Source: Thermodesulfobacteriota bacterium
Lineage (GTDB): Bacteria; Desulfobacterota; Desulfobaccia; Desulfobaccales; 0-14-0-80-60-11
Direction of reading: 5' to 3'
Length of the DNA: 64,000 bases
Assembly: GCA_040757175.1 (NCBI GenBank)
Contig: JBFLXM010000080.1
Span: 213-64,212, forward strand
Below are positions 27,327 through 56,790 of this stretch, piece by piece (positions within the stretch are counted from its first letter, which is position 1; each line of letters starts with the position of its first letter). The notes under the pieces were generated by a model. That model saw nothing but the letters and a program-made list of their open reading frames with translations, made no database searches and was not told where the DNA came from. Position numbers and translations under genes: made by a program.

Positions 27327-27360
27327 AGATTTAACCGGTCAGGCTAAGTACATAACTTTG

Positions 27361-27595
27361 CTTTGAAAAGTTCAAAGTTCAAGGTTCAAAGTTTTTTTCC
27401 TCGTTCCCAAGTTGCACTTGGGAACGAAAATGGAGGCCAAGCTCAGCTTGGCCACTATTGCGTTCCCAAGCACAGCTTGGGAACGAGTAAAAAACCCTCT
27501 GGTGGGGCGGGCCTCCGTGCCCGCCGAGCAACAGGCGGCCAGAGACGGCCGCCCCACCAACTTGGAACCTGGAACTTGGAACTTGGAACTATTCT
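27361..27595. repeat. Mosaic intergenic element: octamer STR block, three REP-like hairpins, a nested GC hairpin, then a second octamer STR block
   Basis: (GTTCAA(A/G)G)x3 at 27369-27392; cgttcccaag-N5-cttgggaacg at 27401-27427 and 27461-27485; ggccaagctcagcttggcc at 27435-27453; ggtggggcgg...ccgccccacc at 27501-27558; (CTTGGAAC-type octamers)x4 at 27559-27590. Confidence 0.85.
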
Positions 27596-27611
27596 AACCA
27601 AATAACGCCCT

Positions 27612-33326: not shown

Positions 33327-34310
33327 ATGAGCAAACATATACGCGGCCTGGGTCTCTTTTCCGGGGGGCTGGACAGCATGTTGGCGGCCACGGTCCTCCG
33401 GGCCCAGGGTCTGGACGTCACCGGCATTTTTTTCGTTACCCCCTTCTTTGGTCCGGACCGGGCCCGGCAGTCCGCGGCCCACCTGCAGCTTCCTCTGCTG
33501 GTAGTGGATATCACAGACAAATTCTTTCCCCTGATCTACGCCCCGCCCCACGGCTTCGGCCGGGGCCACAACCCTTGCATCGACTGCCATCTGCTGATGC
33601 TCCGGGAAGCCGCGGCTCTGATGGAGCCCGAGGGTTTCCATTTCCTGTTCACCGGCGAGGTCCTGGGCCAGCGGCCCATGAGCCAGCACCGGAATTCCTT
33701 GAACCTCATCGCCCGGCAATCCGGGGTCCAGGAGTTGCTGCTGCGGCCCTTGAGCGCCAAACTGCTGGCCCCTACCCGTCCGGAACTCCTGGGCTGGGTG
33801 GACCGGGAAAGGCTGCTGGACTTGAACGGCCGCAGCCGCAAGCCGCAGATAGCCCTGGCCGCGGCGTACGGCATTACCAATTATCCCGCGCCCGCGGGGG
33901 GGTGCCTCCTCACCGATCCGGGCTACGCCGCCCGTCTCCAGGAGACTCTGCGCCATCAAGGGGAGGTGTCCCGCCGGGACCTGGAATTACTGAAATGGGG
34001 GCGGCACTTTCGCCTGCCCGGAGGGGCCAAGGCCGTGGTGGGGCGCACGCAGCGGGATAATGAGGCCATGGAGAAACTGATCGAGCCCGGTGACAGGGTT
34101 CTCAAGGTCAGGGGCTATCCCGGCCCCCTGGTCCTGGTGACCGGCCAGACCCCGGCTGCCGATTTGGAGGTGGCCGCGGGCCTGGCCGCGGCTTACAGCG
34201 ACGCGCGTGCAGAAACCCCGGTGGACGTAACTGTCCAGGCCGGGGCGGAGACCGGCCTCATCCATCTGACCACCGCGCCCAAGGCGCGGTTTAAGGAGTG
34301 GCTGGTCTAA
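33327..34310 (+). CDS. PP-loop ATP pyrophosphatase, ThiI/MnmA-related (tRNA thiolation-type enzyme)
   Basis: 327 aa; PP-loop 'LFSGGLDS'; 'NPCIDCH' Cys motif. Confidence 0.7.
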   Translation: MSKHIRGLGLFSGGLDSMLAATVLRAQGLDVTGIFFVTPFFGPDRARQSAAHLQLPLLVVDITDKFFPLIYAPPHGFGRGHNPCIDCHLLMLREAAALMEPEGFHFLFTGEVLGQRPMSQHRNSLNLIARQSGVQELLLRPLSAKLLAPTRPELLGWVDRERLLDLNGRSRKPQIALAAAYGITNYPAPAGGCLLTDPGYAARLQETLRHQGEVSRRDLELLKWGRHFRLPGGAKAVVGRTQRDNEAMEKLIEPGDRVLKVRGYPGPLVLVTGQTPAADLEVAAGLAAAYSDARAETPVDVTVQAGAETGLIHLTTAPKARFKEWLV

Positions 34311-34313
34311 AGA

Positions 34314-34464
34314 GTTCAAGGTTCAAAGTTCAAAGTTCAAAGTTACATATACTGCTCTTGACGGTTGGTCATGATTCATGGGTTAAGCCGCTAAGCTAAG
34401 GTACTGTTGAACCATGCCCCCGCCTACACTAACCTTGAACCTTGAACTTTGAACTTTAAACTTT
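34314..34464. repeat. Inverted octamer-repeat arms (GTTCAAAG)x4 / (CTTTGAAC)x4 enclosing an ~86-nt core
   Basis: Left arm 34314-34344, right arm 34431-34464 (reverse complement); the right arm overlaps the last codons and stop of mpl. Confidence 0.85.
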
Positions 34465-35874
34465 CTCCCCACCCAAAGCCTCGCACAACCGCGGCAACAG
34501 GTGGTCGAAGTCGCCGTTGGACATGATCAGGGCCACGTCTCCGGGCCGCAATTTTGCCAACAACCCCTCCAGCAGTTGATCGGTATCCGGAAAGTAGAGA
34601 GCCTCCTGGCCCTGGGCCGTGAGGTCGGCGATGAGTTGCCGGGAGGAGAATTGCTCCTCCGGTTCCACCTTCCACAGATCCGGGGGCTCCCGCACCATGA
34701 TCAGGTCCGCGTCTTTAAAGGCCCGGGCGTAGGGCTCCTGGAAGACCCGGCGCCGGGAGGTGTTGGTGCGGGGCTCAAAGACCGCCACCAGGCGCCGGTC
34801 CGGATAGCCCTGGCGCACCGCCTCCAGGGTGGCGGCTACCGCGGTGGGATGGTGGGCAAAGTCCTCCAACACCAGTACGCCCCGGTGTTCCCCCGCGGCC
34901 TCCAGGCGGCGCTTCACCCCCCGGAAGCCCGCCAGGGTTTTTTGTAAGCGCTGCGGATTCTCCCCCAACTCAGCCAATGTGGCCACCGCGGCCAGGGAGT
35001 TCAAGACGTTGTGGGTGCCCAGGAGGGGGGTGAAAAACCTGCCCCACCTCCTCCCGTCCCGCCAGACGGTGAAATCCATGCCCCCGGAGGCAGGCTCAAT
35101 CTCCACGGCCCGCCAGGTGGCGGCCTCCTGCAGGCCGTAAAAAGCTACTGCCGCCGCCGCCCCCCGGCAGACCTGCCGCACCAGGGCCGCGTCCCCCCAG
35201 GCCAGCAGGGTGCCGCCCTCCCCAACCTGCTGCACGAACCCCTGGAAGGCCTGGATTATCCGGTCCAGGTCGGGGTAGATGTCCGCGTGGTCGTACTCAA
35301 TGGAGGTGAGGACCGCCAGATGGGGCCGGAAGTGCAGAAACTTGGGGCGCTTATCAAAGAACGCGGTGTCGTATTCATCCCCTTCCAGGACCACATAGTC
35401 CCCCTGGCCGGTGCGGTAATTGGCGTGGAAATTACGGGCGATCCCCCCCACCATGAATCCCGGGTCCCGGCCCGCGGCCTGGAGCAGCCAGGCAATGAGC
35501 GCGGTGGTGGTGCTCTTGCCGTGGGTGCCGGCCACCACGATGCTCCGCCGCTCCCCTACCAGGAAGCGGTTCAGGGCCTCGGGCAGGGACAGCCGGGGGA
35601 GATTGCGGGCCAGGACCGCCTGGGCCTCGGGGTTCTCCCGGCGGATGACGTTCCCCACCACCACCAGGTCCGGCGCGGGCTCCAGGTTCTCCGGCTGATA
35701 GCCGTTCAGCACCTTGATCCCCAGCCCCTCCAGGAAGGTGCTCATGGGGGGATAGGCATGCTCGTCGGAGCCGGTGACCCAAAAACCCTGCTCCTTCAGG
35801 ATGCCCGCCAGCGCGGCCATGCCCGTGCCGCAGATGCCCAGGAGGTGGATGTGTTTATATTTATTATTCTTCAT
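34456..35874 (-). CDS. mpl: UDP-N-acetylmuramate:L-alanyl-gamma-D-glutamyl-meso-diaminopimelate ligase
   Basis: 472 aa; 'HLLGICGTGMAALAGIL...GSDEHAYPPMSTFLE...AGTHGKSTT' is collinear with E. coli Mpl. Confidence 0.85.
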   Translation of the reverse strand: MKNNKYKHIHLLGICGTGMAALAGILKEQGFWVTGSDEHAYPPMSTFLEGLGIKVLNGYQPENLEPAPDLVVVGNVIRRENPEAQAVLARNLPRLSLPEALNRFLVGERRSIVVAGTHGKSTTTALIAWLLQAAGRDPGFMVGGIARNFHANYRTGQGDYVVLEGDEYDTAFFDKRPKFLHFRPHLAVLTSIEYDHADIYPDLDRIIQAFQGFVQQVGEGGTLLAWGDAALVRQVCRGAAAAVAFYGLQEAATWRAVEIEPASGGMDFTVWRDGRRWGRFFTPLLGTHNVLNSLAAVATLAELGENPQRLQKTLAGFRGVKRRLEAAGEHRGVLVLEDFAHHPTAVAATLEAVRQGYPDRRLVAVFEPRTNTSRRRVFQEPYARAFKDADLIMVREPPDLWKVEPEEQFSSRQLIADLTAQGQEALYFPDTDQLLEGLLAKLRPGDVALIMSNGDFDHLLPRLCEALGGEKV

Positions 35875-40539: not shown

Positions 40540-41118
40540 TTAGTCTGCATCAGCATCAACTCCTATAATTAAAACCGGGATGTCAATATCAGCAACACCC
40601 CTTTTTTCCAAGTCCCAAATAAACTGTTCAAAATAAGATACTCCAGTTGACATTTCATCGGCAAATTGTTTTATAGGAACTATCTCAATACCAGTATCTA
40701 TAAAACTCATTTTGTTAAAAATGGTCATCTTTGCGCATACGTTATAAACCATAAAAGCATATTTGCCAAATTGCACTTCAATGCCTAACTTCTCTTTTAC
40801 AAAATCCATTTCTCTAAATGCACCTTTATTTAAATCTTTAGGTATATAATCTTCTGAGTAATAGTGAGTAGGATAATTGCATTTAACCTTTATATTTTTC
40901 CAGTTAAGCTCATAGAATAATTTCTTAAATGCATTATTTAAAGCTATTGGACTGAATAACATTCTCCCAGGCATGGTTTTCTCTTTACTTTTTTTGGTCT
41001 TGCATTTTTTGGACTTTACTAAACTAATTACTTTTTCCACTTCCTTCAAAAGATGCGAATATTTATTTTGAACAACTTCGGCCCCGTTGTTAAATGAATA
41101 CCTGCCAGCAATTATCAT
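40540..41118 (-). CDS. Type II restriction endonuclease, BglII/BstYI-like
   Basis: 192 aa, AT-rich; 'EMDFVKEKLGIEVQFGK' gives Asp-X8-Glu-Val-Gln, the spacing of the BglII catalytic residues; 4-nt overlap with the upstream methyltransferase. Confidence 0.6.
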   Translation of the reverse strand: MIIAGRYSFNNGAEVVQNKYSHLLKEVEKVISLVKSKKCKTKKSKEKTMPGRMLFSPIALNNAFKKLFYELNWKNIKVKCNYPTHYYSEDYIPKDLNKGAFREMDFVKEKLGIEVQFGKYAFMVYNVCAKMTIFNKMSFIDTGIEIVPIKQFADEMSTGVSYFEQFIWDLEKRGVADIDIPVLIIGVDADAD

Positions 41119-42068
41119 TTATTTTCCTTGGTTTTCCATTCTTCGGGAATTTGAGAAACCTTTTCCCGACCAGTTGGCATAAAAATTTCCTTACCTAATG
41201 GTCTAATTCTCAGCTTGCATTGATAGAAATCATTTATTCTTTGCTTGGCTATTTCAATATATTCTTTTTCCTTATCACACCCGACAACCTTGCGGCCATG
41301 CTTTAGTCCTGCTATTAGAGCGGAACCCACCCCGCAATAGGGATCAATCACATAATCGCTCTCATCAGTCAAGGCCAACACGCAGCGTTCAACAAGCTCA
41401 ACCGGGAATTGGCAAGGATGAATCGTTTTTTCGGGATGGTTTGATTTTACATTCGGAATGTTCCAAAATTCGTTATCCCAATCCCTTTTCAGGATTTCCC
41501 AGATATCGGAAGGGTTTTTTCCGAGAGGATTGCCAGAGGGTTTCCCAATATTCGGTCCTTTGTAATGTCTCTTGCCCGGATATTTCCCTGGTATCCGCAC
41601 AGCATCGAGGTTGAATTTATATTTATCCTCTTTAGTGAACCACAGGATTGTTTCATATCGGCCTGAAAAGCGTTTAGAGGCGTGCAAGCCGTGCCCAAAA
41701 TGCCAGATAATGCGATTTCTTAGGTGAAGACCTTTGTCCTTGAAAATTTTATAAAAATAGATGTCCAGAGGGTAGATTTCACCATTGTCCACATGATTTC
41801 CCACTTCCCAACAGATACTTCCGTCATCAGCCAAGATTCTCACAAGTTCATTAATCACGATTTCTTGTTCAATTAGGTATTCTTCAATACTTTTACGGGT
41901 TTCGTAACTTTTCCCGATATTGTAAGGAGGAGAGGTTATTATTAGGGTGGCCAAATTAGAGGGTAATTCCTTAAAAAATTCATAAGAGTCCCCACAGTGA
42001 AGAATTATATTGAACTGGGGATCGTATTCTTCTCTTATTGTTGGCTTAGAAAGCAGAGATAGCTGCAT
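41115..42068 (-). CDS. Beta-class N4-cytosine/N6-adenine DNA methyltransferase (cognate M subunit)
   Basis: 317 aa; motif IV 'ITSPPYNIG' precedes motif I 'VIDPYCGVGSA'; AT-rich. Confidence 0.85.
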   Translation of the reverse strand: MQLSLLSKPTIREEYDPQFNIILHCGDSYEFFKELPSNLATLIITSPPYNIGKSYETRKSIEEYLIEQEIVINELVRILADDGSICWEVGNHVDNGEIYPLDIYFYKIFKDKGLHLRNRIIWHFGHGLHASKRFSGRYETILWFTKEDKYKFNLDAVRIPGKYPGKRHYKGPNIGKPSGNPLGKNPSDIWEILKRDWDNEFWNIPNVKSNHPEKTIHPCQFPVELVERCVLALTDESDYVIDPYCGVGSALIAGLKHGRKVVGCDKEKEYIEIAKQRINDFYQCKLRIRPLGKEIFMPTGREKVSQIPEEWKTKENK

Positions 42069-42665: not shown

Positions 42666-43369
42666 GTCTCCCGGCTCCGGAGCCAGGGAAGGAGAGCCTC
42701 CGCCATTTGCAGATCTTCCGGGGTGGTGATCTTCAGGTTGCGGAGATCGCCTGGAATGACCGCCACCTGGTGCCCCATCTCCTCCAGCAGGGAGGCCTCA
42801 TCAGTGCCGTAAAAGTTGCGGCTGTAGGCCTCGATAAAGGCCCGCCAGAGCAAATCGAGTTGAAAACCCTGGGGGGTCTGAATCTGCCAGATGTCCTTGC
42901 GGTCCAGGGTGTGGATCACCTTCCCCTGGGGGTTGACCCTTTTCAGAGTGTCCTGGGCCGGCACCCCCAGGATAGCCCCGCCGTGGCTGCGCGCACCCTT
43001 GATGACCCGGCGGATCTGCTCCGGATGCACGAAGGGGCGCACCCCGTCGTGGACCAGGATAATATCCAGGCCATCTTCCTGTTTCAGGGCCTTCAAGGCG
43101 TGGTAGACGCTGTCCTGCCGCTCTTTTCCCCCCGGCACCAGGCGGAGCACCTTTTTGAACCCGTACCGGGCGATCACCTCTTCCCGGCAATATTCCAGGT
43201 CATCGGGGTGGGCCACCACCGTGACTTCCTGGACTTCCCGCACGTTTTCAAAAACCTCCAGGGTGTGGGCCAAAATGGGTTTACCGGCCAGCAGCAGATA
43301 AGGCTTGGCCACCTGGCTCTGCATGCGCAGGCCCACGCCCGCGGCGGCAATGATGGCGGCCACCCTCAT
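42662..43369 (-). CDS. ispD: 2-C-methyl-D-erythritol 4-phosphate cytidylyltransferase
   Basis: 235 aa; 'AIIAAAGVGLRM...KPYL'; 'VHDGVRPF'. Confidence 0.9.
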   Translation of the reverse strand: MRVAAIIAAAGVGLRMQSQVAKPYLLLAGKPILAHTLEVFENVREVQEVTVVAHPDDLEYCREEVIARYGFKKVLRLVPGGKERQDSVYHALKALKQEDGLDIILVHDGVRPFVHPEQIRRVIKGARSHGGAILGVPAQDTLKRVNPQGKVIHTLDRKDIWQIQTPQGFQLDLLWRAFIEAYSRNFYGTDEASLLEEMGHQVAVIPGDLRNLKITTPEDLQMAEALLPWLRSRET

Positions 43370-44289
43370 GGTTGAGCCTCCAGGGGCCCCTGGCAGGAAA
43401 CCCTCCCGGCCCGGCCGGGCAAGCGCCCCTGCCTGACGCCGGCCGCGGGAATCTTCTCCGGCTCCTGTAAGAGTTTCCGGGCCCAGTCCTCCAAGCGGAA
43501 GAACTCCACCCCCTGGTCCTGGCAGCGGTCCAGCAAATTCGCAAACTCCTGGCCCAAAGGCCCTCCTTCCACCTCCGCATGCACCGTCAATACCTGGGGA
43601 AGATCAGCCTTGGCCAGACGCCCCAAAACCAGGGCGGCAAAATCCTCAGGCCGGCACCCATTAAAACCCAGCAACTCATCCAGCGTGGGCAGGGTGGTGG
43701 GAATTTCCAACACGGGATTTATCTGTCCCCCAAAGCAAGGGAAATAGGGGGCATAGCCCCGGGTGTCGCTGCCGTACAAAAAACCGCCCGCGGCCAACAC
43801 GGCCCGGCTGGCCGCGCTGCACTGCCATCCCGGCGCGGCAAAGGCCCGGGCGGTATGCCCCAGAAAAGACCTGTACCTACTCTGGGCCTGGCTCAATTCC
43901 CGGGTTACCTCTTCCAGGTTCATGGACAAAAGATGATCGTGCCAATGCACGTGATCATAGCCGTGCAGCCCCACCTCATGGCCCGCCGCGGTCAAGGCCC
44001 CTAAAATCTCCCCTGCCCCCTTGCCGATCAAAGGGGCTGGCAACAGGGTACCATAGAACATGGTCCGGAGTCCATAAATCGCAGGGGCCCGGGTGCGCCA
44101 CATTTTTTCCAGAAAACCTTGCTGCCGAAAGACCCGGAAGACGGCCCGCCCGGAATTGTCCGGCCCCAGGGCCACAAAAAAGGAGGCTTTGATGCCACGC
44201 GCGGCCAATATCTCCAGAAGGGCCGGAACTCCCTGCCGAAACCCCTCCAGGGTGTCCACGTCCACTTTTAATCCCAACCGCGGCGACAC
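43366..44289 (-). CDS. arnD: 4-deoxy-4-formamido-L-arabinose-phosphoundecaprenol deformylase (polysaccharide deacetylase family)
   Basis: 307 aa; 'LGLKVDVDTLEGFRQGVPALLEIL...ASFFVALGPDN...HAEVEG' is collinear with E. coli ArnD; GTG start. Confidence 0.85.
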   Translation of the reverse strand: MSPRLGLKVDVDTLEGFRQGVPALLEILAARGIKASFFVALGPDNSGRAVFRVFRQQGFLEKMWRTRAPAIYGLRTMFYGTLLPAPLIGKGAGEILGALTAAGHEVGLHGYDHVHWHDHLLSMNLEEVTRELSQAQSRYRSFLGHTARAFAAPGWQCSAASRAVLAAGGFLYGSDTRGYAPYFPCFGGQINPVLEIPTTLPTLDELLGFNGCRPEDFAALVLGRLAKADLPQVLTVHAEVEGGPLGQEFANLLDRCQDQGVEFFRLEDWARKLLQEPEKIPAAGVRQGRLPGRAGRVSCQGPLEAQP

Positions 44290-44304
44290 ATCGACTCCAT
44301 CTAT

Positions 44305-44444
44305 CAGTAGCCAGTAGTCAGTGGTCAGTTTTCAGTTTTTGGTTTTTGGTTTTTGTGACACTGATCACTGATTACTGATCACTGATTACTGATTACTTAT
44401 CCCTAACCACTGGCCACTGACCACTGACCACTGACCACTGGCCC
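44305..44444. repeat. Array of 20 consecutive heptads in unbroken 7-nt register
   Basis: CAGTAGC CAGTAGT CAGTGGT CAGTTTT CAGTTTT TGGTTTT TGGTTTT TGTGACA CTGATCA CTGATTA CTGATCA CTGATTA CTGATTA CTTATCC CTAACCA CTGGCCA CTGACCA CTGACCA CTGACCA CTGGCCC; ends 1 nt before the stop of the upstream gene. Confidence 0.9.
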
Positions 44445-45491
44445 CTAAACCCCTCCCCCAAATTTCTCTTCCCCCCTGGCCTCTTCCAGGAAGGAATCCA
44501 GGGTAATTTTCAGGGAGGTCTTGAGGTCCGTTTTCGGCTGCCAGCCCAGGAGTTGTTTAGCTTTGGCGATGGAGGGCTTGCGGCTGGTGATGTCCTGGTA
44601 GCCCTGGCCGTAGTAGGCCTCGTGGGGGGTCTCCACAATCTCCGAGTAAACCCCGTCGCCTTTATGGTCCGGGTGTTCTTTAAAAAGGTCCCGGAGCATA
44701 TGGGCCAATTCTTTTACTGAGGCCTCGTTATCCGGGTTGCCGATGTTGAAGATCTGGCTGTCGGCCGCGCCCCCGGGATTCTCAATGATCTGCATCAGGC
44801 AGTCGATACCGTCTTCCACATAAGTGAAGCAGCGTTTCTGGAAGCCGCCGTCCACCAGGCGGATGGGACTGCGCTCCAGCAAGTTCAGGATGAATTGGGT
44901 CACCACCCGGGAGCTCCCTTCCTTGGCCGCGTAGAGGTCGTCCAGCTTGGGGCCGATCCAGTTGAAGGGGCGGATCATGGAAAACTGCAATTTCCCCTCC
45001 TGGCCGTAGGCCCAAATGACCCGGTCCAGGAGCTGCTTGGAGCAACTGTAGATCCAGCGCTGCTTGTTAATGGGGCCCAGCACCAGGGTGCTTTCATCCT
45101 CGCTGAATTCCCCGTCCGGGCACATGCCGTAGACTTCCGAAGTGGAGGGGAAGATGATCCGGGTTTGATACTGCACGCATTGGCGGACGATGCGCAGGTT
45201 CTCTTCAAAATCCAGTTCAAAGACCCGGAGGGGGTTCTTGACGTAGACCATGGGGGTGGCGATGGCCACCAGGGGCAGGGCCACGTCGCACTTCTTGATA
45301 TGGTACTCGATCCACTCCTTGTTGATGCCGATATCCCCTTCCAGGAAGTGGAAGCGGGGGTGGTCCAGGGACTCTTCCAGTTTGTTGGAGTAGAGGTCCA
45401 TGCCGAAGACTTCCCAGTCCCTGGTGTTAAGAATGCGCCGGGTGAGGGCGTTGCCGATGAAGCCGTTGACGCCTAGAATTAGAATTTTCAT
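44445..45491 (-). CDS. arnA: UDP-glucuronate oxidative decarboxylase (homolog of the ArnA C-terminal domain)
   Basis: 348 aa; '[12 protein letters not shown]...HFLEGDI...[21 protein letters not shown]...STSEVYGMC...[15 protein letters not shown]' is near-collinear with E. coli ArnA residues ~315-660. Confidence 0.9.
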
Positions 45492-45551
45492 AATTTTTTA
45501 TTATCACCTTTTCGAATTCAGAGGTCATTTTACCAGGAAAAAAGAAAAAAA

Positions 45552-45634
45552 GGGGAAGAGGGGAAAAGGGGAAAAGGGGAAATGCCAAAAATTAGCATTC
45601 TTCTTCCCCTTTTCCCCTTTTAACCTTTTCCCCC
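45552..45634. repeat. Imperfect hairpin whose arms are (GGGGAAAA)n / (TTTTCCCC)n octamer repeats
   Basis: ggggaagaggggaaaaggggaaaaggggaaatgc - caaaaatta - gcattcttcttccccttttccccttttaaccttttccccc. Confidence 0.85.
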
Positions 45635-46612: not shown

Positions 46613-46705
46613 CGGTTTTCGGTTTTCGGTTTTCGGTTTCTGATTCTGATTCTGGTTCCCAAGCTGTGCTTGGGAACCCCTTTGGCCGCAAAGCTGAGCT
46701 TTGCG
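46613..46705. repeat. Mosaic element: (CGGTTTT)x4, (TGATTC)x2, then two REP-like hairpins
   Basis: Heptads from 46613; ggttcccaagctgtgcttgggaacc at 46654-46678; cgcaaagctgagctttgcg at 46687-46705. Confidence 0.85.
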
Positions 46706-46745: not shown

Positions 46746-47126
46746 TTATTGGAGAAACGCTTCGGTCTTCTTAATGAATTGTTCTGCTCTTTCCTGCAAA
46801 TCCGTCACTTCAGATTCGGATATGCCGCTCAGATATTCATAATCGCTGACCTGGCGCTTTTCAAAGGCCCGATGTAGAGACTGATGCATTTCTTTTGGCA
46901 ATAGTCCGGATTTGATAAAGTGTTCGCCAAATGCGGCGATTGCCGCCCGATGGCTCGAAAAAGTCTTTCCTTGACTGAGCAACAGGGCCTCGGCGCCATA
47001 AAACATGGCATAATAAAGGCGTGAGACGGCAGAGTCAAAATCGGCGTTTTGCCGCAAAAGTTCGGCAGATGCCAGATAACGGCGAGCCTTGGCCAGCATC
47101 TGTTTAATTTCTTCCGCCACCGTCAA
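46746..47126 (-). CDS. HEPN-domain protein (putative toxin of a HEPN/MNT pair)
   Basis: 126 aa; 'FDSAVSRLYYAMFYGAEALL...SHRAAIAAFGEHF...RQVSDYE'; 4-nt overlap with the upstream MNT gene. Confidence 0.8.
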   Translation of the reverse strand: MTVAEEIKQMLAKARRYLASAELLRQNADFDSAVSRLYYAMFYGAEALLLSQGKTFSSHRAAIAAFGEHFIKSGLLPKEMHQSLHRAFEKRQVSDYEYLSGISESEVTDLQERAEQFIKKTEAFLQ

Positions 47127-47458
47127 AGCCGTACCCCTTCCCGCCGCACGTTTTCAAAAAGGGGGCTCTTTCTCACCTCAAGCCATTCCTCCGGCACAGG
47201 ATAGGTAGCGATGAGCACGTTGTGCTCCAGGCAGATGTCAGCCACCCCATCCCCGATCCGGTCAATTTCTTGGCTTGGTTTGACCTCTCCCTCCAAGGCA
47301 ATGAGCACATCCACATCCGAGTCCGCATGAAAATCTCCCCGGGCAAAGGAACCGTACAGATAAACGCCGCGCAGTCGATCCCCATAAATCTCAGCCAAAT
47401 AATCCTGCAATTCTTTTAAGGCCTGTTGGACGGCTCCGGGAATTTGGCGGCCGGACAT
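47123..47458 (-). CDS. Minimal nucleotidyltransferase (MNT) domain protein (putative antitoxin)
   Basis: 111 aa; 'GVYLYGSFARGDFHADSDVDVLIAL' (GS-X9-11-DxD) signature. Confidence 0.85.
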   Translation of the reverse strand: MSGRQIPGAVQQALKELQDYLAEIYGDRLRGVYLYGSFARGDFHADSDVDVLIALEGEVKPSQEIDRIGDGVADICLEHNVLIATYPVPEEWLEVRKSPLFENVRREGVRL

Positions 47459-47655: not shown

Positions 47656-48657
47656 CTACGACTCCTGGCCCCTGGCCCCTGGCCCCTGGCCTTCTCCCCC
47701 CAACTCCTGCCGGATGACAAACCGCGGCCTGCCCCGCACCTCCCGGTAGATGCGGCCCACGTACTCCCCCACCAGGGCCAGGGCAAAGGTGTTCAGCCCC
47801 ACGAAGACAAAGAGGATGGCAAAAAGGGTAAAGACCCCCTCCACTTCCGGGCCCACGAAGAGCCGGCGCAGAAAGAGAAAAGCCCCGAAGCCCAGGCCCA
47901 ACAGGGCGATGCAGATGCCCATGACTCCCACCATGTGGATGGGAAAGTTGGAGAACCCGGTCATGAAGTCCACATTGAGGCGCAGCAATTTGATGAGGCT
48001 GTATTTCGACTGGCCCCGCTCCCTCTCCGCATGGCCCACCGGGATTTCCGCCACCCGCCGGGAAAAGAGATTGGCCAGGGCCGGAATGAAGCTGGAGGTC
48101 TCATGGCACTGGTTGATGCTGTCCACCACCTCCCGGCGGTAGGCCCGGAGCATGCAGCCGTAGTCCCGGAGCTTGACCCCGGTGACCCGGGACATTACCT
48201 GGTTGATGAGGAAAGAGGGAAATTTGCGGAATAAGGAGTCTTGCCGGTTTTCCCGCCAGCCTCCCACGGTATCAAAGCCTTCCTCGATCTTGGCCACCAG
48301 CCTGGGGATCTCTTCCGGGGGGTTTTGCAGGTCCGCGTCCAGGGTGACCAGCACCTGGCCCCGGGCGGCCTGGAAACCCGCGAAAATGGCCTGGTGCTGG
48401 CCGAAGTTGCGGTGAAACTGGAGGGCCCGGATGACCTGGGGATGCTGCCGGTGGAGTTGGCTCAACAGATCCCAGGAGCGGTCAGAAGAGCCGTCATCCA
48501 CAAAGATGATCTCGTAGGGACGGTTCATGCCCCCGAGGGTGCGGACCAGGCGCTCCCCCAGTTCCTCCAGGTTTTCATCTTCGTTGTAAACGGGAATAAC
48601 GACTGATATGTAAGGTTGGGGGGACGCGAGGTTTAAGGACATGACCTGGTTAGCCAT
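47656..48657 (-). CDS. arnC: Undecaprenyl-phosphate 4-deoxy-4-formamido-L-arabinose transferase (GT2)
   Basis: 333 aa; 'ISVVIPVYNE' and 'LDADLQNPPEEIPRLVAKIEEGFD' are nearly identical to E. coli ArnC; the last ~12 codons are encoded by (CTGGCCC)x4 heptads. Confidence 0.9.
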   Translation of the reverse strand: MANQVMSLNLASPQPYISVVIPVYNEDENLEELGERLVRTLGGMNRPYEIIFVDDGSSDRSWDLLSQLHRQHPQVIRALQFHRNFGQHQAIFAGFQAARGQVLVTLDADLQNPPEEIPRLVAKIEEGFDTVGGWRENRQDSLFRKFPSFLINQVMSRVTGVKLRDYGCMLRAYRREVVDSINQCHETSSFIPALANLFSRRVAEIPVGHAERERGQSKYSLIKLLRLNVDFMTGFSNFPIHMVGVMGICIALLGLGFGAFLFLRRLFVGPEVEGVFTLFAILFVFVGLNTFALALVGEYVGRIYREVRGRPRFVIRQELGGEGQGPGARGQES

Positions 48658-49576
48658 AATTTTTACTCTCGGGGAGACTTATAAGAAACAGAGGTTCGAA
48701 TAGATATCCGGGAATATCAATAGCAGAATTTTCGGCAATGCGCCGACGGCATTCTTCAACGAATTGCTCGTGAATTTCAAATCCCGCCGCCTTGCGTCCC
48801 AGGCGACGGGCAACAACAATGGTAGTCCCGCCGCCGGCAAATGGGTCTATCACTATTCCACCCACAGGGCAGGCGATCTTAATAAAGAATTCGGCTAATC
48901 CCTCCGGCATTGCCGCGGTGTGGGCAACGCCTCGATACTGGTTGTAGGTCTGAGGAACAATCACCACATTCCCTGGATCAGCTCCTCCTCGTAGATACGT
49001 CTTCGTGCGGTCACGGCCAAAACCAGCCTCTGTATTTCGTCTGCCCAGTCTGTCCAATTTTCTCCTGGCGATCTCGGCGAAGTCCGCTTTATAAGGAACT
49101 CTGACAGCATCCAAGTCAAAATATGGTTTCAGGCCACGGGCAAAGTGATAAACATATTCAAAACTATCCTTGGTCCGTGGGCCAAACTTGCCTGGAACTG
49201 CATTTGATTTCGCCCAGATGTAAGTCTCAATCCAACGCCAACCCATCCGCTGGAGGGAAAGAACTAGCTCATAAACATATGGGTGCCTCTGCCCTTTTAG
49301 TGGACCCTGTTTTGCCACCCGATTCTTGATATTAAGGATGAGGCTCCCACTCTGACTCGCAGCGTTAAACATCTCTTGGGCAAATGGTAGGAACCACTCA
49401 ACATAATGGTCTGGGTGTATCCGGCTATATGCCCGGGCATCGGCATAAGGAGGACTCATGAAGAAAAGGTCGATGCTGCCTTGGGGAAGGAGTGGCAACA
49501 AATCCAAAGCATCGCCAAGTGTTATCCCATCATCGAGAAACTGAGCTAATGCTTGAGTGCCACCTCTGATCTGCAC
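48650..49576 (-). CDS. Orphan beta-class N4-cytosine/N6-adenine DNA methyltransferase
   Basis: Motif IV 'FFMSPPYADA' precedes motif I 'VIDPFAGGGTT'. Start proposed at GTG 49576 (GGAG upstream), because the ORF-track N-terminus runs into RNase P RNA. The stop overlaps the arnC ATG (ATGGCTAA). Confidence 0.75.
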   Translation of the reverse strand: MQIRGGTQALAQFLDDGITLGDALDLLPLLPQGSIDLFFMSPPYADARAYSRIHPDHYVEWFLPFAQEMFNAASQSGSLILNIKNRVAKQGPLKGQRHPYVYELVLSLQRMGWRWIETYIWAKSNAVPGKFGPRTKDSFEYVYHFARGLKPYFDLDAVRVPYKADFAEIARRKLDRLGRRNTEAGFGRDRTKTYLRGGADPGNVVIVPQTYNQYRGVAHTAAMPEGLAEFFIKIACPVGGIVIDPFAGGGTTIVVARRLGRKAAGFEIHEQFVEECRRRIAENSAIDIPGYLFEPLFLISLPESKNYG

Positions 49577-49652
49577 GCTGCATCTCCACAAGCTGCACGC
49601 ATGTAAGTTTATGGGGGACTGCCGCTTGTAGTGGCCGGTGGACCCAAAGAAG

Positions 49653-50021
49653 CCGCGGAGCAGGCCGTAAGCCGAGTTCTGTACCGGAAAAGCTCCGGCG
49701 ATGATCATTCCTCTGGGACCCCGGTTGCCCGGGGCCTCTAGCGGCCTACCCGGGAGCTTTGGGCGGGCCACCCTCAAGCGCTCCCCTATTTGGCCTTGCT
49801 CCGGGTGGGGTTTTCCAAGCCGGCAATGTCGCCACTGCCGCTGGTGAGCTCTTACCTCACCTTTTCACCCTTACCGTGGACGTACCACGGCGGTCTGGTC
49901 TCTGAGGCACTTTCCCTGGGGTTGCCCCCGCTGGGCGTTACCCAGCACCCTGCCCTGTGGAGCTCGGACTTTCCTCCGGCCGCCCGGAAAGCAGCCGGCG
50001 ATCATCTGGCCTACTCCGCGG
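49653..50021 (-). ncRNA. rnpB: RNase P RNA, bacterial type A
   Basis: Reverse complement contains 'GGAGGAAAGTCCGAGCTCCACAGGGCAGGGTGCTGGGTAACGCCCAG', 'GGTAAGGGTGAAAAGGTGAGGTAAGAGCTCACC', 'CCACCCGGAGCAAGGCCAAATAGGGG' and 'ACAGAACTCGGCTTA'. P1 pairs CCGCGGAGTAGGCC with GGCCTGCTCCGCGG. Ends are good to about 5 nt. Confidence 0.85.
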
Positions 50022-56446: not shown

Positions 56447-56453
56447 TTAGAGA

Positions 56454-56790
56454 CGGTTTTCTGTTTTCGGTTTTCGGTTAAAAGATTTCCAGGTAGGGCG
56501 GGCCTCTGTGCCCGCCATCCTTATGCCGGTGACCCGGGCTTTTCAGCTCCGGCGGCAGTGGGGCGGGCCGCGGCGCCTGCCATCATGGCGGCAGGGTGTC
56601 TTCTCCATCTATTCTCTATTTCGGAGAAGAGCGCCCCCCACATTAATTTGGTGTTAACCGCACATTAGTTTGATGTTTCTTCTCGTTCCCAAGTTGTACT
56701 TGGGAACGTCTTTTGTCTTGCCAAGCTGTGCTTGGCCTGCGGCGGGACGGGCCTCTGCGACCGCCGCCCTCATGGTGGGCCATGCCCACC
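56454..56790. repeat. Repeat-dense 350-bp spacer: (CGGTTTT-type heptads)x4 plus at least six GC-rich REP-like hairpins
   Basis: Heptads 56454-56481; ggcgggcctctgtgcccgcc 56497-56516; cgttcccaagttgtacttgggaacg 56684-56708; gccaagctgtgcttggc 56720-56736; gcggcgg...ccgccgc 56739-56767; ggtgggccatgcccacc 56774-56790. Confidence 0.85.

Follow-up and report, generated by a model that had tools for sequence, protein, structure and literature searches.

What kind of element fills the whole spacer between two arn genes with seven-nucleotide words in a single register, how could it have come to be there, and does it do anything for the genes on either side? These questions are raised by a 64,000-nt stretch of DNA from a Thermodesulfobacteriota bacterium of the Desulfobaccales (assembly GCA_040757175.1, contig JBFLXM010000080.1), called the window throughout, in which the spacer between an arnA C-domain-like gene (arnA-C) and an arnD-like gene holds a heptanucleotide array at 44305-44444. 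The array had been described before from the letters alone (the sequence-only reading), and in this study its register, predicted structure, orthologs and kinship with known repeats were investigated. We observed that the tract is a compound microsatellite-type array, of the long simple sequence repeat (SSR) or short tandemly repeated repetitive (STRR) sort, which is an established kind of element. Our best explanation, to which we give a probability of about 0.55, is that slippage built this STRR-type array, that it expanded in situ, and that it is transcribed within the arn operon and may act as an intercistronic hairpin of the messenger RNA (mRNA), as the modelled folds suggest.

The array and the genes beside it

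The junction carries the following features, with the kind of support for each in brackets.

43366-44289, minus strand: arnD-like polysaccharide deacetylase / Ara4FN deformylase gene with a GTG start (open reading frame (ORF) and family match)
44295-44298, minus strand: GGAG Shine-Dalgarno (SD) sequence of arnD, 5 nt 5' of the GTG and just outside the predicted stem (sequence and fold)
44304-44329, minus strand: 3' arm of the predicted mRNA stem, ACUGACCACUGACUACUGGCUACUGA, of NNACUGA-type units, ending 14 nt 5' of the arnD GUG (fold)
44305-44444, minus strand: compound heptanucleotide array of 20 units in about five blocks of 2-5 units (heptad cut, Tandem Repeats Finder and lag self-match)
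44326-44353, minus strand: A-rich sense block, (AAAACCA)x2(AAAACTG)x2, resembling the (AAAACCG)n leaders just 5' of other starts in this genome and its relatives
44361-44395, minus strand: central block of five TGATCA/TGATTA units, two with GATC, forming a small internal hairpin in the fold (lag match and fold)
44423-44448, minus strand: 5' arm of the predicted mRNA stem, UUAGGGGCCAGUGGUCAGUGGUCAGU, of CAGU-type units and including the arnA-C UAG (fold)
44445-45491, minus strand: arnA C-domain-like NAD-dependent epimerase/dehydratase gene, with its last codons and stop in weak first units of the array (ORF and family match)

When the tract was cut into heptads, 44305-44444 gave 20 consecutive 7-mers in one register without a break, and these are exactly the words that the sequence-only reading had listed. 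The self-match of the tract fell from 0.77 at lag 7 through 0.68 at lag 14 to 0.60 at lag 21, with all other lags at 0.16-0.33, and Tandem Repeats Finder returned the tract as five overlapping period-7 rows. On the minus strand, which is the mRNA sense, the units run (GGGCCAG)(TGGTCAG)x3(TGGCCAG)(TGGTTAG)(GGATAAG)(TRATCAG)x5(TGTCACA)(AAAACCA)x2(AAAACTG)x2(ACCACTG)(ACTACTG)(GCTACTG), and in another phase the 3' block of the sense strand can be read as (AAACTGA)(AAACTGA)(CCACTGA)(CTACTGG)(CTACTGA). The array fills the spacer, as had been claimed: the arnA-C stop codon (44445-44447) directly adjoins it, and 15 nt separate it from the arnD GTG (44289-44287). The register persists weakly for about two more units into the end of arnA-C (GGGGAGG and GGTTTAG on the sense strand), so that the TAG stop of this gene falls inside a unit. 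The assignment of the two genes to the ArnA C-domain type (epimerase/dehydratase) and to the ArnD type (polysaccharide deacetylase) is reasonable, and the ATGGAG-N5-GTG arrangement at the start of arnD also occurs in several relatives (the loci labelled L001, L012, L162 and L164).

The outer words are reverse complements of one another, as had been noted, with CAGTGGTCAG at 44319 matching CTGACCACTG at 44417. The central TGATCA is itself palindromic; here the earlier count of five GATC-containing units has to be corrected to two, the other three being TGATTA, and an idea involving Dam methylation at GATC was dropped because the array holds only two such sites. The tract is neither coding nor a clustered regularly interspaced short palindromic repeat (CRISPR) array, in agreement with the sequence-only reading. 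TGA, TAA and TAG all lie within sense-strand units, and no ORF spans the tract, a 74-aa ORF of the plus strand (44093-44317) clipping the first two units only. Its 7-mers are contiguous and have no spacers, whereas CRISPR repeats are about 24-48 nt long and alternate with unique spacers. For annotation, such tracts should be entered as repeats and not as novel RNA genes or CRISPR-like loci.

Predicted structure of the transcript

Both strands of the spacer were folded, and both gave strong predicted structures. For the sense RNA (minus strand, 165 nt) the predicted energy is -66.9 kcal/mol (z -7.6), a stability that none of 200 shuffles reached; the antisense RNA folds at -60.0 kcal/mol (z -7.4), and the sense single-stranded DNA at -33.8 kcal/mol. 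The dominant element of the sense fold is a predicted helix of 25 bp, in which UUAGGGGCCAGUGGUCAGUGGUCAGU pairs with ACUGACCACUGACUACUGGCUACUGA, so that it begins at the stop codon of arnA-C and leaves 14 nt to the GUG of arnD; pairing of the two ends over about 17-24 nt had been foreseen, and the fold makes it slightly longer. Three of the stem pairs are G-U pairs in the sense RNA only and become A-C mismatches on the other strand, and the GGAG of arnD (44298-44295) is left single-stranded beside the helix. We also permuted the order of the units while keeping the 20 words, which gave a mean of -52.7 kcal/mol (sd 4.6) against an observed -68.2 kcal/mol, with 0 of 300 permutations as stable. 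The complementary blocks at the two ends are thus placed non-randomly.

Scans for promoters and terminators found no promoter-like site and no terminator in the arnA-C/arnD spacer, and an intrinsic (Rho-independent) terminator was rejected, as UAGAUGGAGUCGAUGUG follows the 3' arm without a T-run. A search of Rfam gave no family at the gathering threshold, and at a permissive threshold only chance sub-threshold matches to miRNA hairpins.

Orthologous spacers in relatives

The closest genome contigs were metagenome-assembled genomes of Desulfobaccales / Desulfobacca (Thermodesulfobacteriota), with 83-93% ArnA-C identity, while JGI metagenome contigs reached 94%; the best relatives stand at 93-94% for ArnA-C and 89% for ArnD. 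Among the sequences searched there was no genome of the same species and no exact match to the ArnA-C protein of the window. We compared the distance from the arnA-C stop to the arnD start in 115 loci where an arnD homolog follows arnA-C. In 89 distant loci the median was 15 nt (75% at 30 nt or less, many overlapping), and in 26 Desulfobaccales loci it was 92 nt. The spacer is therefore a lineage-specific expansion that took place in situ, which explains why the array fills the whole of it.

Heptad arrays were found in the same spacer in at least 10 relatives with 83-94% ArnA-C identity, so that the period of seven recurs at the orthologous junction although the words differ. Since these orthologous arrays come from independent NCBI, JGI and Logan assemblies, the tract is not an assembly artefact, a doubt that the sequence-only reading had itself raised. 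The arm units are given below, 5' arm first.

Window: TGGTCAG and CTGACCA
L012, L162, L164, L083, L001: TGATCAG / TAATCAG and CTGATCA / CTGATTA
L082, L161: TGAGCAG and CTGCTCA
L092: CGAGTCC and GGACTCG
L165, L168: GTGGCCA and TGGCCAC

All the loci tabulated keep the two arms complementary despite their different words. Four further relatives (L005, L007, L086 and L090) have an ordinary GC hairpin, GTAGGGGCGGGTTTAAAACCCGCCCCTAC, at the same junction. This one conserved junction thus offers a series that runs from no spacer, through a plain hairpin and arms of 2-3 units, to a compound array of 20 units, and the series shows the birth of an array and its growth by 7-nt steps with arm complementarity kept.

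Gain and loss of units could be followed between pairs of relatives. L162 and L164, whose arnD genes are 91.7% identical in nucleotides, differ by a 14-nt indel in the 5' arm and a 7-nt indel in the 3' arm, and apart from these two indels their spacers are 91% identical. The arrays of the window and of L081 align over their full length at 76% identity, with nucleotide identities of 87.8% for arnA-C and 80.8% for arnD, and their block order is alike: G-rich units first, then GTRATMA, then A-rich and finally ACTG units. A word may change across a whole block, as with TAATCAG in the window and TAATAAG in L081, which points to turnover by duplication of units. The relatives have 2-5 units per arm, and the 20-unit tract of the window is the largest seen. 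No copy-number variation was noticed among seven contigs that form three identical or near-identical groups (L162/L163; L165/L166/L167; L168/L169) and come from different assemblies or samples, and the idea of a hypermutable locus is therefore unsupported. The suggestion of a slippage-prone spacer accordingly holds for the whole-unit indels between related species and finds no support in these near-identical contigs.

Heptad arrays elsewhere in the window and in other genomes

A period scan of the window detected 13 runs of period 7 at 9 sites. In 50 Markov shuffles such runs numbered 0.02 on average and at most 1, and periods 4-6 and 8-12 had only 0-1 runs in the window. Comparable frequency in shuffled sequence, which had been named as a result that would count against the array, is thus far from what was found. 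All 13 runs lie in spacers or at gene edges. The arnA-C/arnD spacer is not alone in having such a tract, since heptad arrays stand at eight other sites of the window, and the tract belongs to a genome-wide family. The other repeat features of the window are these.

27364/27557 and 28645/28700: heptad runs in an OEP-HlyD-AcrB efflux operon (period scan)
27364-27593, no strand assigned: inverted pair of heptad arrays, (AAGTTCA)n...(GGAACTT)n, in the HlyD-AcrB spacer, with nested hairpins between the two (period scan and fold)
34310-34466, no strand assigned: inverted pair of heptad arrays, (AGTTCAA)n...(TTGAACT)n, with convergent genes on either side, arms at 34310/34427 (period scan and fold)
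45548-45633 (45548-45582 and 45604-45633), minus strand: inverted octamer arrays (GGGGAAAA)n/(CCCCUUUU)n in the spacer from arnA-N to arnA-C (Tandem Repeats Finder and fold)
46609: heptad run 5' of the arnA-N formyltransferase gene (period scan)
47658: heptad run in the C-terminal tail of a GT2 gene (period scan)
56452: heptad run upstream of dnaG (period scan)
62713: heptad run (period scan)

Several of these arrays are inverted pairs that fold into long stems, some of them bracketing other hairpins. Apart from the 20-unit tract, the arrays of the window have 3-5 units (about 28 nt), which is close to the four units given as the mode in Xanthomonas and Geobacter metallireducens, with the detection threshold being biased against shorter arrays. 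The octamer pair has the same design as the heptad tract with a period of 8 nt; its predicted hairpin, about 30 bp long and with an energy of -58 kcal/mol (z -4.2), is followed by a U-run, and inside the string of arn genes it looks like a terminator or attenuator as modelled.

Beyond the window, related Desulfobaccales, Acidobacteriota and Geobacter contigs likewise carry heptad arrays. We counted 64 period-7 arrays in 384 kb of Desulfobaccales loci, 54 of them intergenic or at ORF edges, and 58 in 1.52 Mb from other taxa, where they are concentrated in some Thermoanaerobaculia and Geobacteraceae contigs, often as inverted pairs.

Kinship with known heptanucleotide repeats

The sequence-only reading knew of no described class with such a layout. 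This does not hold, as heptad arrays, often in inverted hairpin pairs between the genes of an operon, are documented in several bacteria (PMC2670836, PMC4692102, PMC4679880, PMC2700814). The tract has what marks long SSR or STRR-like arrays, namely head-to-tail 7-nt units, a dispersed, non-coding and over-represented period of seven, and whole-unit indels at a conserved position. In many bacterial genomes no other long SSR is as abundant as the heptamers, which have been ascribed to polymerase slippage (Mrazek 2007, as cited in PMC4679880 and PMC4692102).

A first likeness is with the STRRs of cyanobacteria. These 7-bp repeats form hairpins, one of which lies between hupS and hupL, and they have been proposed to make transcripts more stable or to couple translation (PMC2670836); heptanucleotides of Calothrix are also cited, in PMC4692102. 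Like these, the present arrays consist of related 7-bp variants that are dispersed in non-coding DNA, lie between operon genes and can form hairpins (PMC2670836). They differ in the host, which is a member of the Desulfobaccales (58% G+C) and not a heterocystous cyanobacterium, and in the 20 units that make up about five blocks in one continuous register. In our limited literature search no earlier description from the Desulfobaccales was found, and STRR-like heptanucleotide arrays are hereby extended to this group.

The canonical STRR1-3 of heterocystous cyanobacteria reportedly have the consensus units CCCCAGT, TTGGTCA and CAACAGT, and Mazel et al. are said to have given TTGGTCA for STRR2 in 1990. 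The words of the tract are none of these three units: TTGGTCA is absent from the array and the nearest word is GTGGTCA, the dominant unit, one base away from the reported STRR2 unit.

A second likeness is with the TAACTGA repeats of Beggiatoaceae, which stand in forward orientation and end about 1 nt before start codons that have no ribosome-binding site (MacGregor 2015, PMC4679880). They are found in marine Beggiatoaceae, some Cyanobacteria and Bacteroidetes, with 'split' sets that hold related 7-mers, and only one TAACTGA inverted repeat is reported from the BOGUAY (orange Guaymas 'Maribeggiatoa') genome (PMC4679880). Our arrays share with them heptamers with a CTGA/ACTG core in forward orientation just 5' of start codons. 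The exact word TAACTGA occurs 0 times in the window; the corresponding sense-strand words of the array are AAACTGA, CCACTGA and CTACTGA, with TTACTGA and TCACTGA on the opposite strand. The ACTG block ends 15 nt before the arnD GTG, yet arnD keeps its GGAG, and here an inverted block that follows the upstream stop codon forms a pair with this forward block. The leaders of arnA-N and dnaG, described below, do fit the forward, start-adjoining repeats that replace a ribosome-binding site.

In Geobacter metallireducens, multi-copy sets of four to five tandem heptanucleotides (MTYCTGA and GGGACCG; Gmet_I / Gmet_H) occur mostly as pairs on opposite strands (Aklujkar 2009, PMC2700814). They lie between and sometimes within genes at variable pair distance, and are annotated as putative global-regulator sites or RNA elements (PMC2700814). 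The paired arrangement is found here too, in the reverse-complementary arms at 44304-44329 and 44423-44448 and in the pairs at 27364/27557 and 34310/34427, and the host was then classed, as was Desulfobacca, among the Deltaproteobacteria. Each Geobacter family has one consensus word, and no compound array of 20 units is reported there, in which the present tract differs.

The repeats of Xanthomonas and Nostoc (GGGAATC / GGGGAYT) form about 180 intergenic arrays of G-rich heptamers, modally of four units (Rehm 2015, PMC4692102). Their units are heterogeneous, some form inverted pairs, and closely related species differ in the length and sequence of arrays that stand at conserved positions (PMC4692102). 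They resemble the arrays studied here as intergenic heptamer SSRs that are over-represented relative to other unit lengths. They are G-tract repeats studied for G-quadruplexes, whereas the present tract is not prone to this structure and would more likely form a duplex hairpin. In a Nostoc preprint, deletion of heptamer repeats affects reporter expression (bioRxiv 10.1101/2022.06.06.494920).

A last comparison concerns the proposed working of the element. In enterobacteria, repetitive extragenic palindromic (REP) sequences and the bacterial interspersed mosaic elements (BIMEs) built from them can form an intercistronic stem-loop, as between malE and malF, that shields the upstream mRNA from 3' exonucleases and sets differential expression. 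REPs have a conserved imperfect palindrome of about 35 nt, exist in hundreds of copies and are linked to RAYT transposases. By analogy, the tract might work in a similar manner, as a stable stem-loop between cistrons of one operon. Unlike a REP, it has no conserved consensus and consists of 7-nt tandem units. A palindrome of the REP/BIME or miniature inverted-repeat transposable element (MITE) type was rejected as an identity, given that a word search of the 64-kb window found no second CAGTGGT-type array and that the orthologs use different words.

Leader arrays and stop/start polarity

Two arrays of the window stand immediately before start codons.

46613-46640, minus strand: (AAAACCG)4 leader of the arnA-N formyltransferase gene, with 6 nt from its end to the ATG (46606) and without a GGAG-type SD
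56452-56481, minus strand: (AAAACCG)4-type leader ending 5 nt before the dnaG ATG (56446), no GGAG-type SD

In 17 of 18 cases an array of the (AAAACCG)n type shares its strand with the neighbouring genes, and those inspected end from a few to about 25 nt 5' of the start codon. In relatives, the orthologous leaders consist of AAAAACG (L001), AAAACAG (L083) or NNACTGA abutting the ATG (L004 824-879, L008 696-735, and L007), and NNACTGA arrays directly adjoin the ATG of dnaG. A contribution of heptads to mRNA structure or to the initiation of translation can be put to a concrete test at the arn junction and at those leaders of arnA-N and dnaG, of the (AAAACCG)n and NNACTGA types, that have no SD.

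When the Desulfobaccales arrays were sorted by position, those within about 30 nt of a start codon had more ACTG than CAGT in 10 cases and the reverse in 2, with a mean A+C content of 0.66 on the sense strand, and those beside stop codons had more CAGT than ACTG in 12 cases and the reverse in 2, with a mean A+C of 0.48. In 130 loci that belong to other taxa we did not see this polarity again (A+C of 0.54 vs 0.53). Because of this, and because the loci are partly orthologous, we take the polarity as a lead and not as a rule. The arnA-C/arnD tract itself can be read as two such blocks, one of the stop-side and one of the start-side kind, joined without a break in register.

One could imagine from this a polar, two-part RNA 'punctuation' in the Desulfobaccales, with G/U-rich CAGU arrays after stops and A/C-rich ACUG or AAAACCG arrays before starts (often replacing the SD), which would pair to loop out spacers and couple translation, and which a conserved single-strand-binding factor with a 7-nt footprint would perhaps read; the arn tract would then be a fused stop and start module. 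We regard this as a speculation with slim chances. If it were true, such a factor could explain the CTGA/ACTG core common to the repeats of Beggiatoaceae, Geobacter and cyanobacteria.

Midway through a PF00144 beta-lactamase-family protein of relatives, an array of the same (AAAACCG)4 word also occurs in frame and encodes TTENRKPKTENRS (L004 16937-16978; likewise four copies in L003 8197-8237 and L091 11553-11595; variants in L087 12024-12062 and L084 12141-12182). It is a heptad array that is tolerated within coding sequence. This insertion, the SD-less leaders and the stop/start polarity are the more intriguing by-products of the study.

Origin and possible role of the array

In the explanation that we prefer, the ancestral gap between arnA-C and arnD was about 15 nt, and the array would have grown in place through gain and loss of whole 7-nt units, probably by replication slippage. 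The CAGU-type units after the stop codon and the ACUG-type units before the ribosome-binding site, being inverted copies, would give a polycistronic arn mRNA a stem of about 25 bp. This stem may loop out an interior of about 90 nt, which would leave the arnA-C stop and the arnD SD and start about 14 nt apart, as in the ancestral geometry. Translational coupling could be kept by this proximity of stop and start, and a stable intercistronic stem-loop might serve as a barrier to 3' exonucleases or as a site for a double-strand-specific RNase. An RNA-structure module within the operon was one of the roles that the sequence-only reading had offered; we take it as the best reading, and the protein-binding alternative offered beside it ranks low.

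Several observations weigh against a role of the hairpin in the mRNA. The antisense RNA and the single-stranded DNA also fold strongly, and the structure therefore need not act at the level of the mRNA. The SD of arnD is already free, so that a regulatory 'unmasking' is not needed. Most taxa run arnA-C and arnD together without a spacer, which means that the hairpin is not required for arn function. L003 and L091 have spacer heptads without a convincing stem. Finally, there is a strand hint in favour of the mRNA, in that 7 of 9 heptad-bearing orthologs fold better as sense than as antisense RNA, but it is not significant among such related loci and was of mixed sign in a narrower, earlier extraction of the spacers.

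The main rival accepts the same growth and denies the function. According to it, slippage together with template switching at quasi-palindromes produced a neutral or selfish by-product that was kept where a 7-nt step is harmless, and the hairpin merely reflects this growth without any selected role in arn. We judge it less likely than the explanation above. It agrees with the placing of the arrays beside unrelated genes (efflux pump, dnaG, mur, arn), with the free variation of words and copy numbers between relatives, with the many taxa that have no spacer at this junction, and with the general abundance of heptamers ascribed to slippage, cited above (Mrazek 2007, as far as PMC4679880 and PMC4692102 relate it). 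The 76% identity of the spacers of the window and L081, slightly under the 81-88% of the flanking genes, is also what weak constraint is expected to give. What it accounts for poorly is that arm complementarity is kept while the words change between species, that the order of the units is non-random with respect to folding (0 of 300 permutations), that the window and L081 keep one block architecture across a flank divergence of 12-19%, and that the Desulfobaccales arrays show a stop-side and start-side polarity.

We consider it improbable that the array is a multivalent binding site, in which each 7-nt unit would be bound by a single-strand RNA-binding protein of the cold-shock-domain or S1-like type, or by a DNA-binding global regulator, so as to tune the translation or transcription of arnD. 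The sense NNACTGA and AAAACCG arrays that lie 0-25 nt 5' of starts in several genes and relatives, often without an SD, are in line with such binding, and there are parallels in the Beggiatoaceae repeats, for which binding of S1, Csp or CsrA has been proposed (PMC4679880), in the putative regulator sites annotated in G. metallireducens (PMC2700814) and in the reporter effects in Nostoc (bioRxiv 10.1101/2022.06.06.494920). The wide variation of words across loci and species argues against one sequence-specific binder, however, arnD has its own GGAG, and the polarity is confined to the Desulfobaccales in our comparison.

Far less probable still is a contingency spacer, phase-variable or rheostat-like, in which gain and loss of heptads would alter the length of the hairpin or the spacing of stop and start and so switch arnD and lipid A modification within populations. 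Phase variation classically targets the cell envelope, where the arn genes have their effect, and whole-unit indels do separate related species. Against this, the seven near-identical contigs have equal copy numbers, the array remains alignable between species that are 12-19% diverged, and it lies between a stop codon and an SD, so that changes of unit number shift no reading frame or promoter spacing.

An inserted MITE- or REP-like mobile element, or else an artefact of assembly, is scarcely credible: the spacer is an insertion relative to distant taxa and its ends are inverted repeats, but the array consists wholly of in-register 7-mers, has no second copy in the window and no conserved multi-copy consensus, and recurs in the independent assemblies.

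Minor observations in the arn region

At 47664-47691, (GGGGCCA)4 forms the last codons of the GT2 (arnC-like) ORF, right before its stop. Here, as at the end of arnA-C, heptad arrays appear to remodel C-termini. Heptad tracts can in this way distort the annotated ends and starts of ORFs, as seen in the C-termini of arnA-C and GT2 and in an over-extended arnA-N ORF.

A REP-like palindrome, GTTCCCAAG-N4-5-CTTGGGAAC (with the variant GGCCAAGC...GCTTGGCC), occurs in several spacers of the window, at about 46655-46680, at about 56690-56715 and twice in 27327-27611; in the HlyD-AcrB spacer it is nested between the heptad arms. A toxin-antitoxin pair of the HEPN / nucleotidyltransferase (MNT-type) kind lies at 46746-47458, between the GT2 gene and arnA-N and thus within the arn string. 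The arn region lies between two N6/N4 DNA methylase genes, at 41115-42068 and 48650-49777. A bacterial RNase P RNA of class A was identified at 49653-50017 on the minus strand (323 bits), and since the second of the methylase ORFs as called, 48650-49777, overlaps it, the start of that ORF is probably over-extended.

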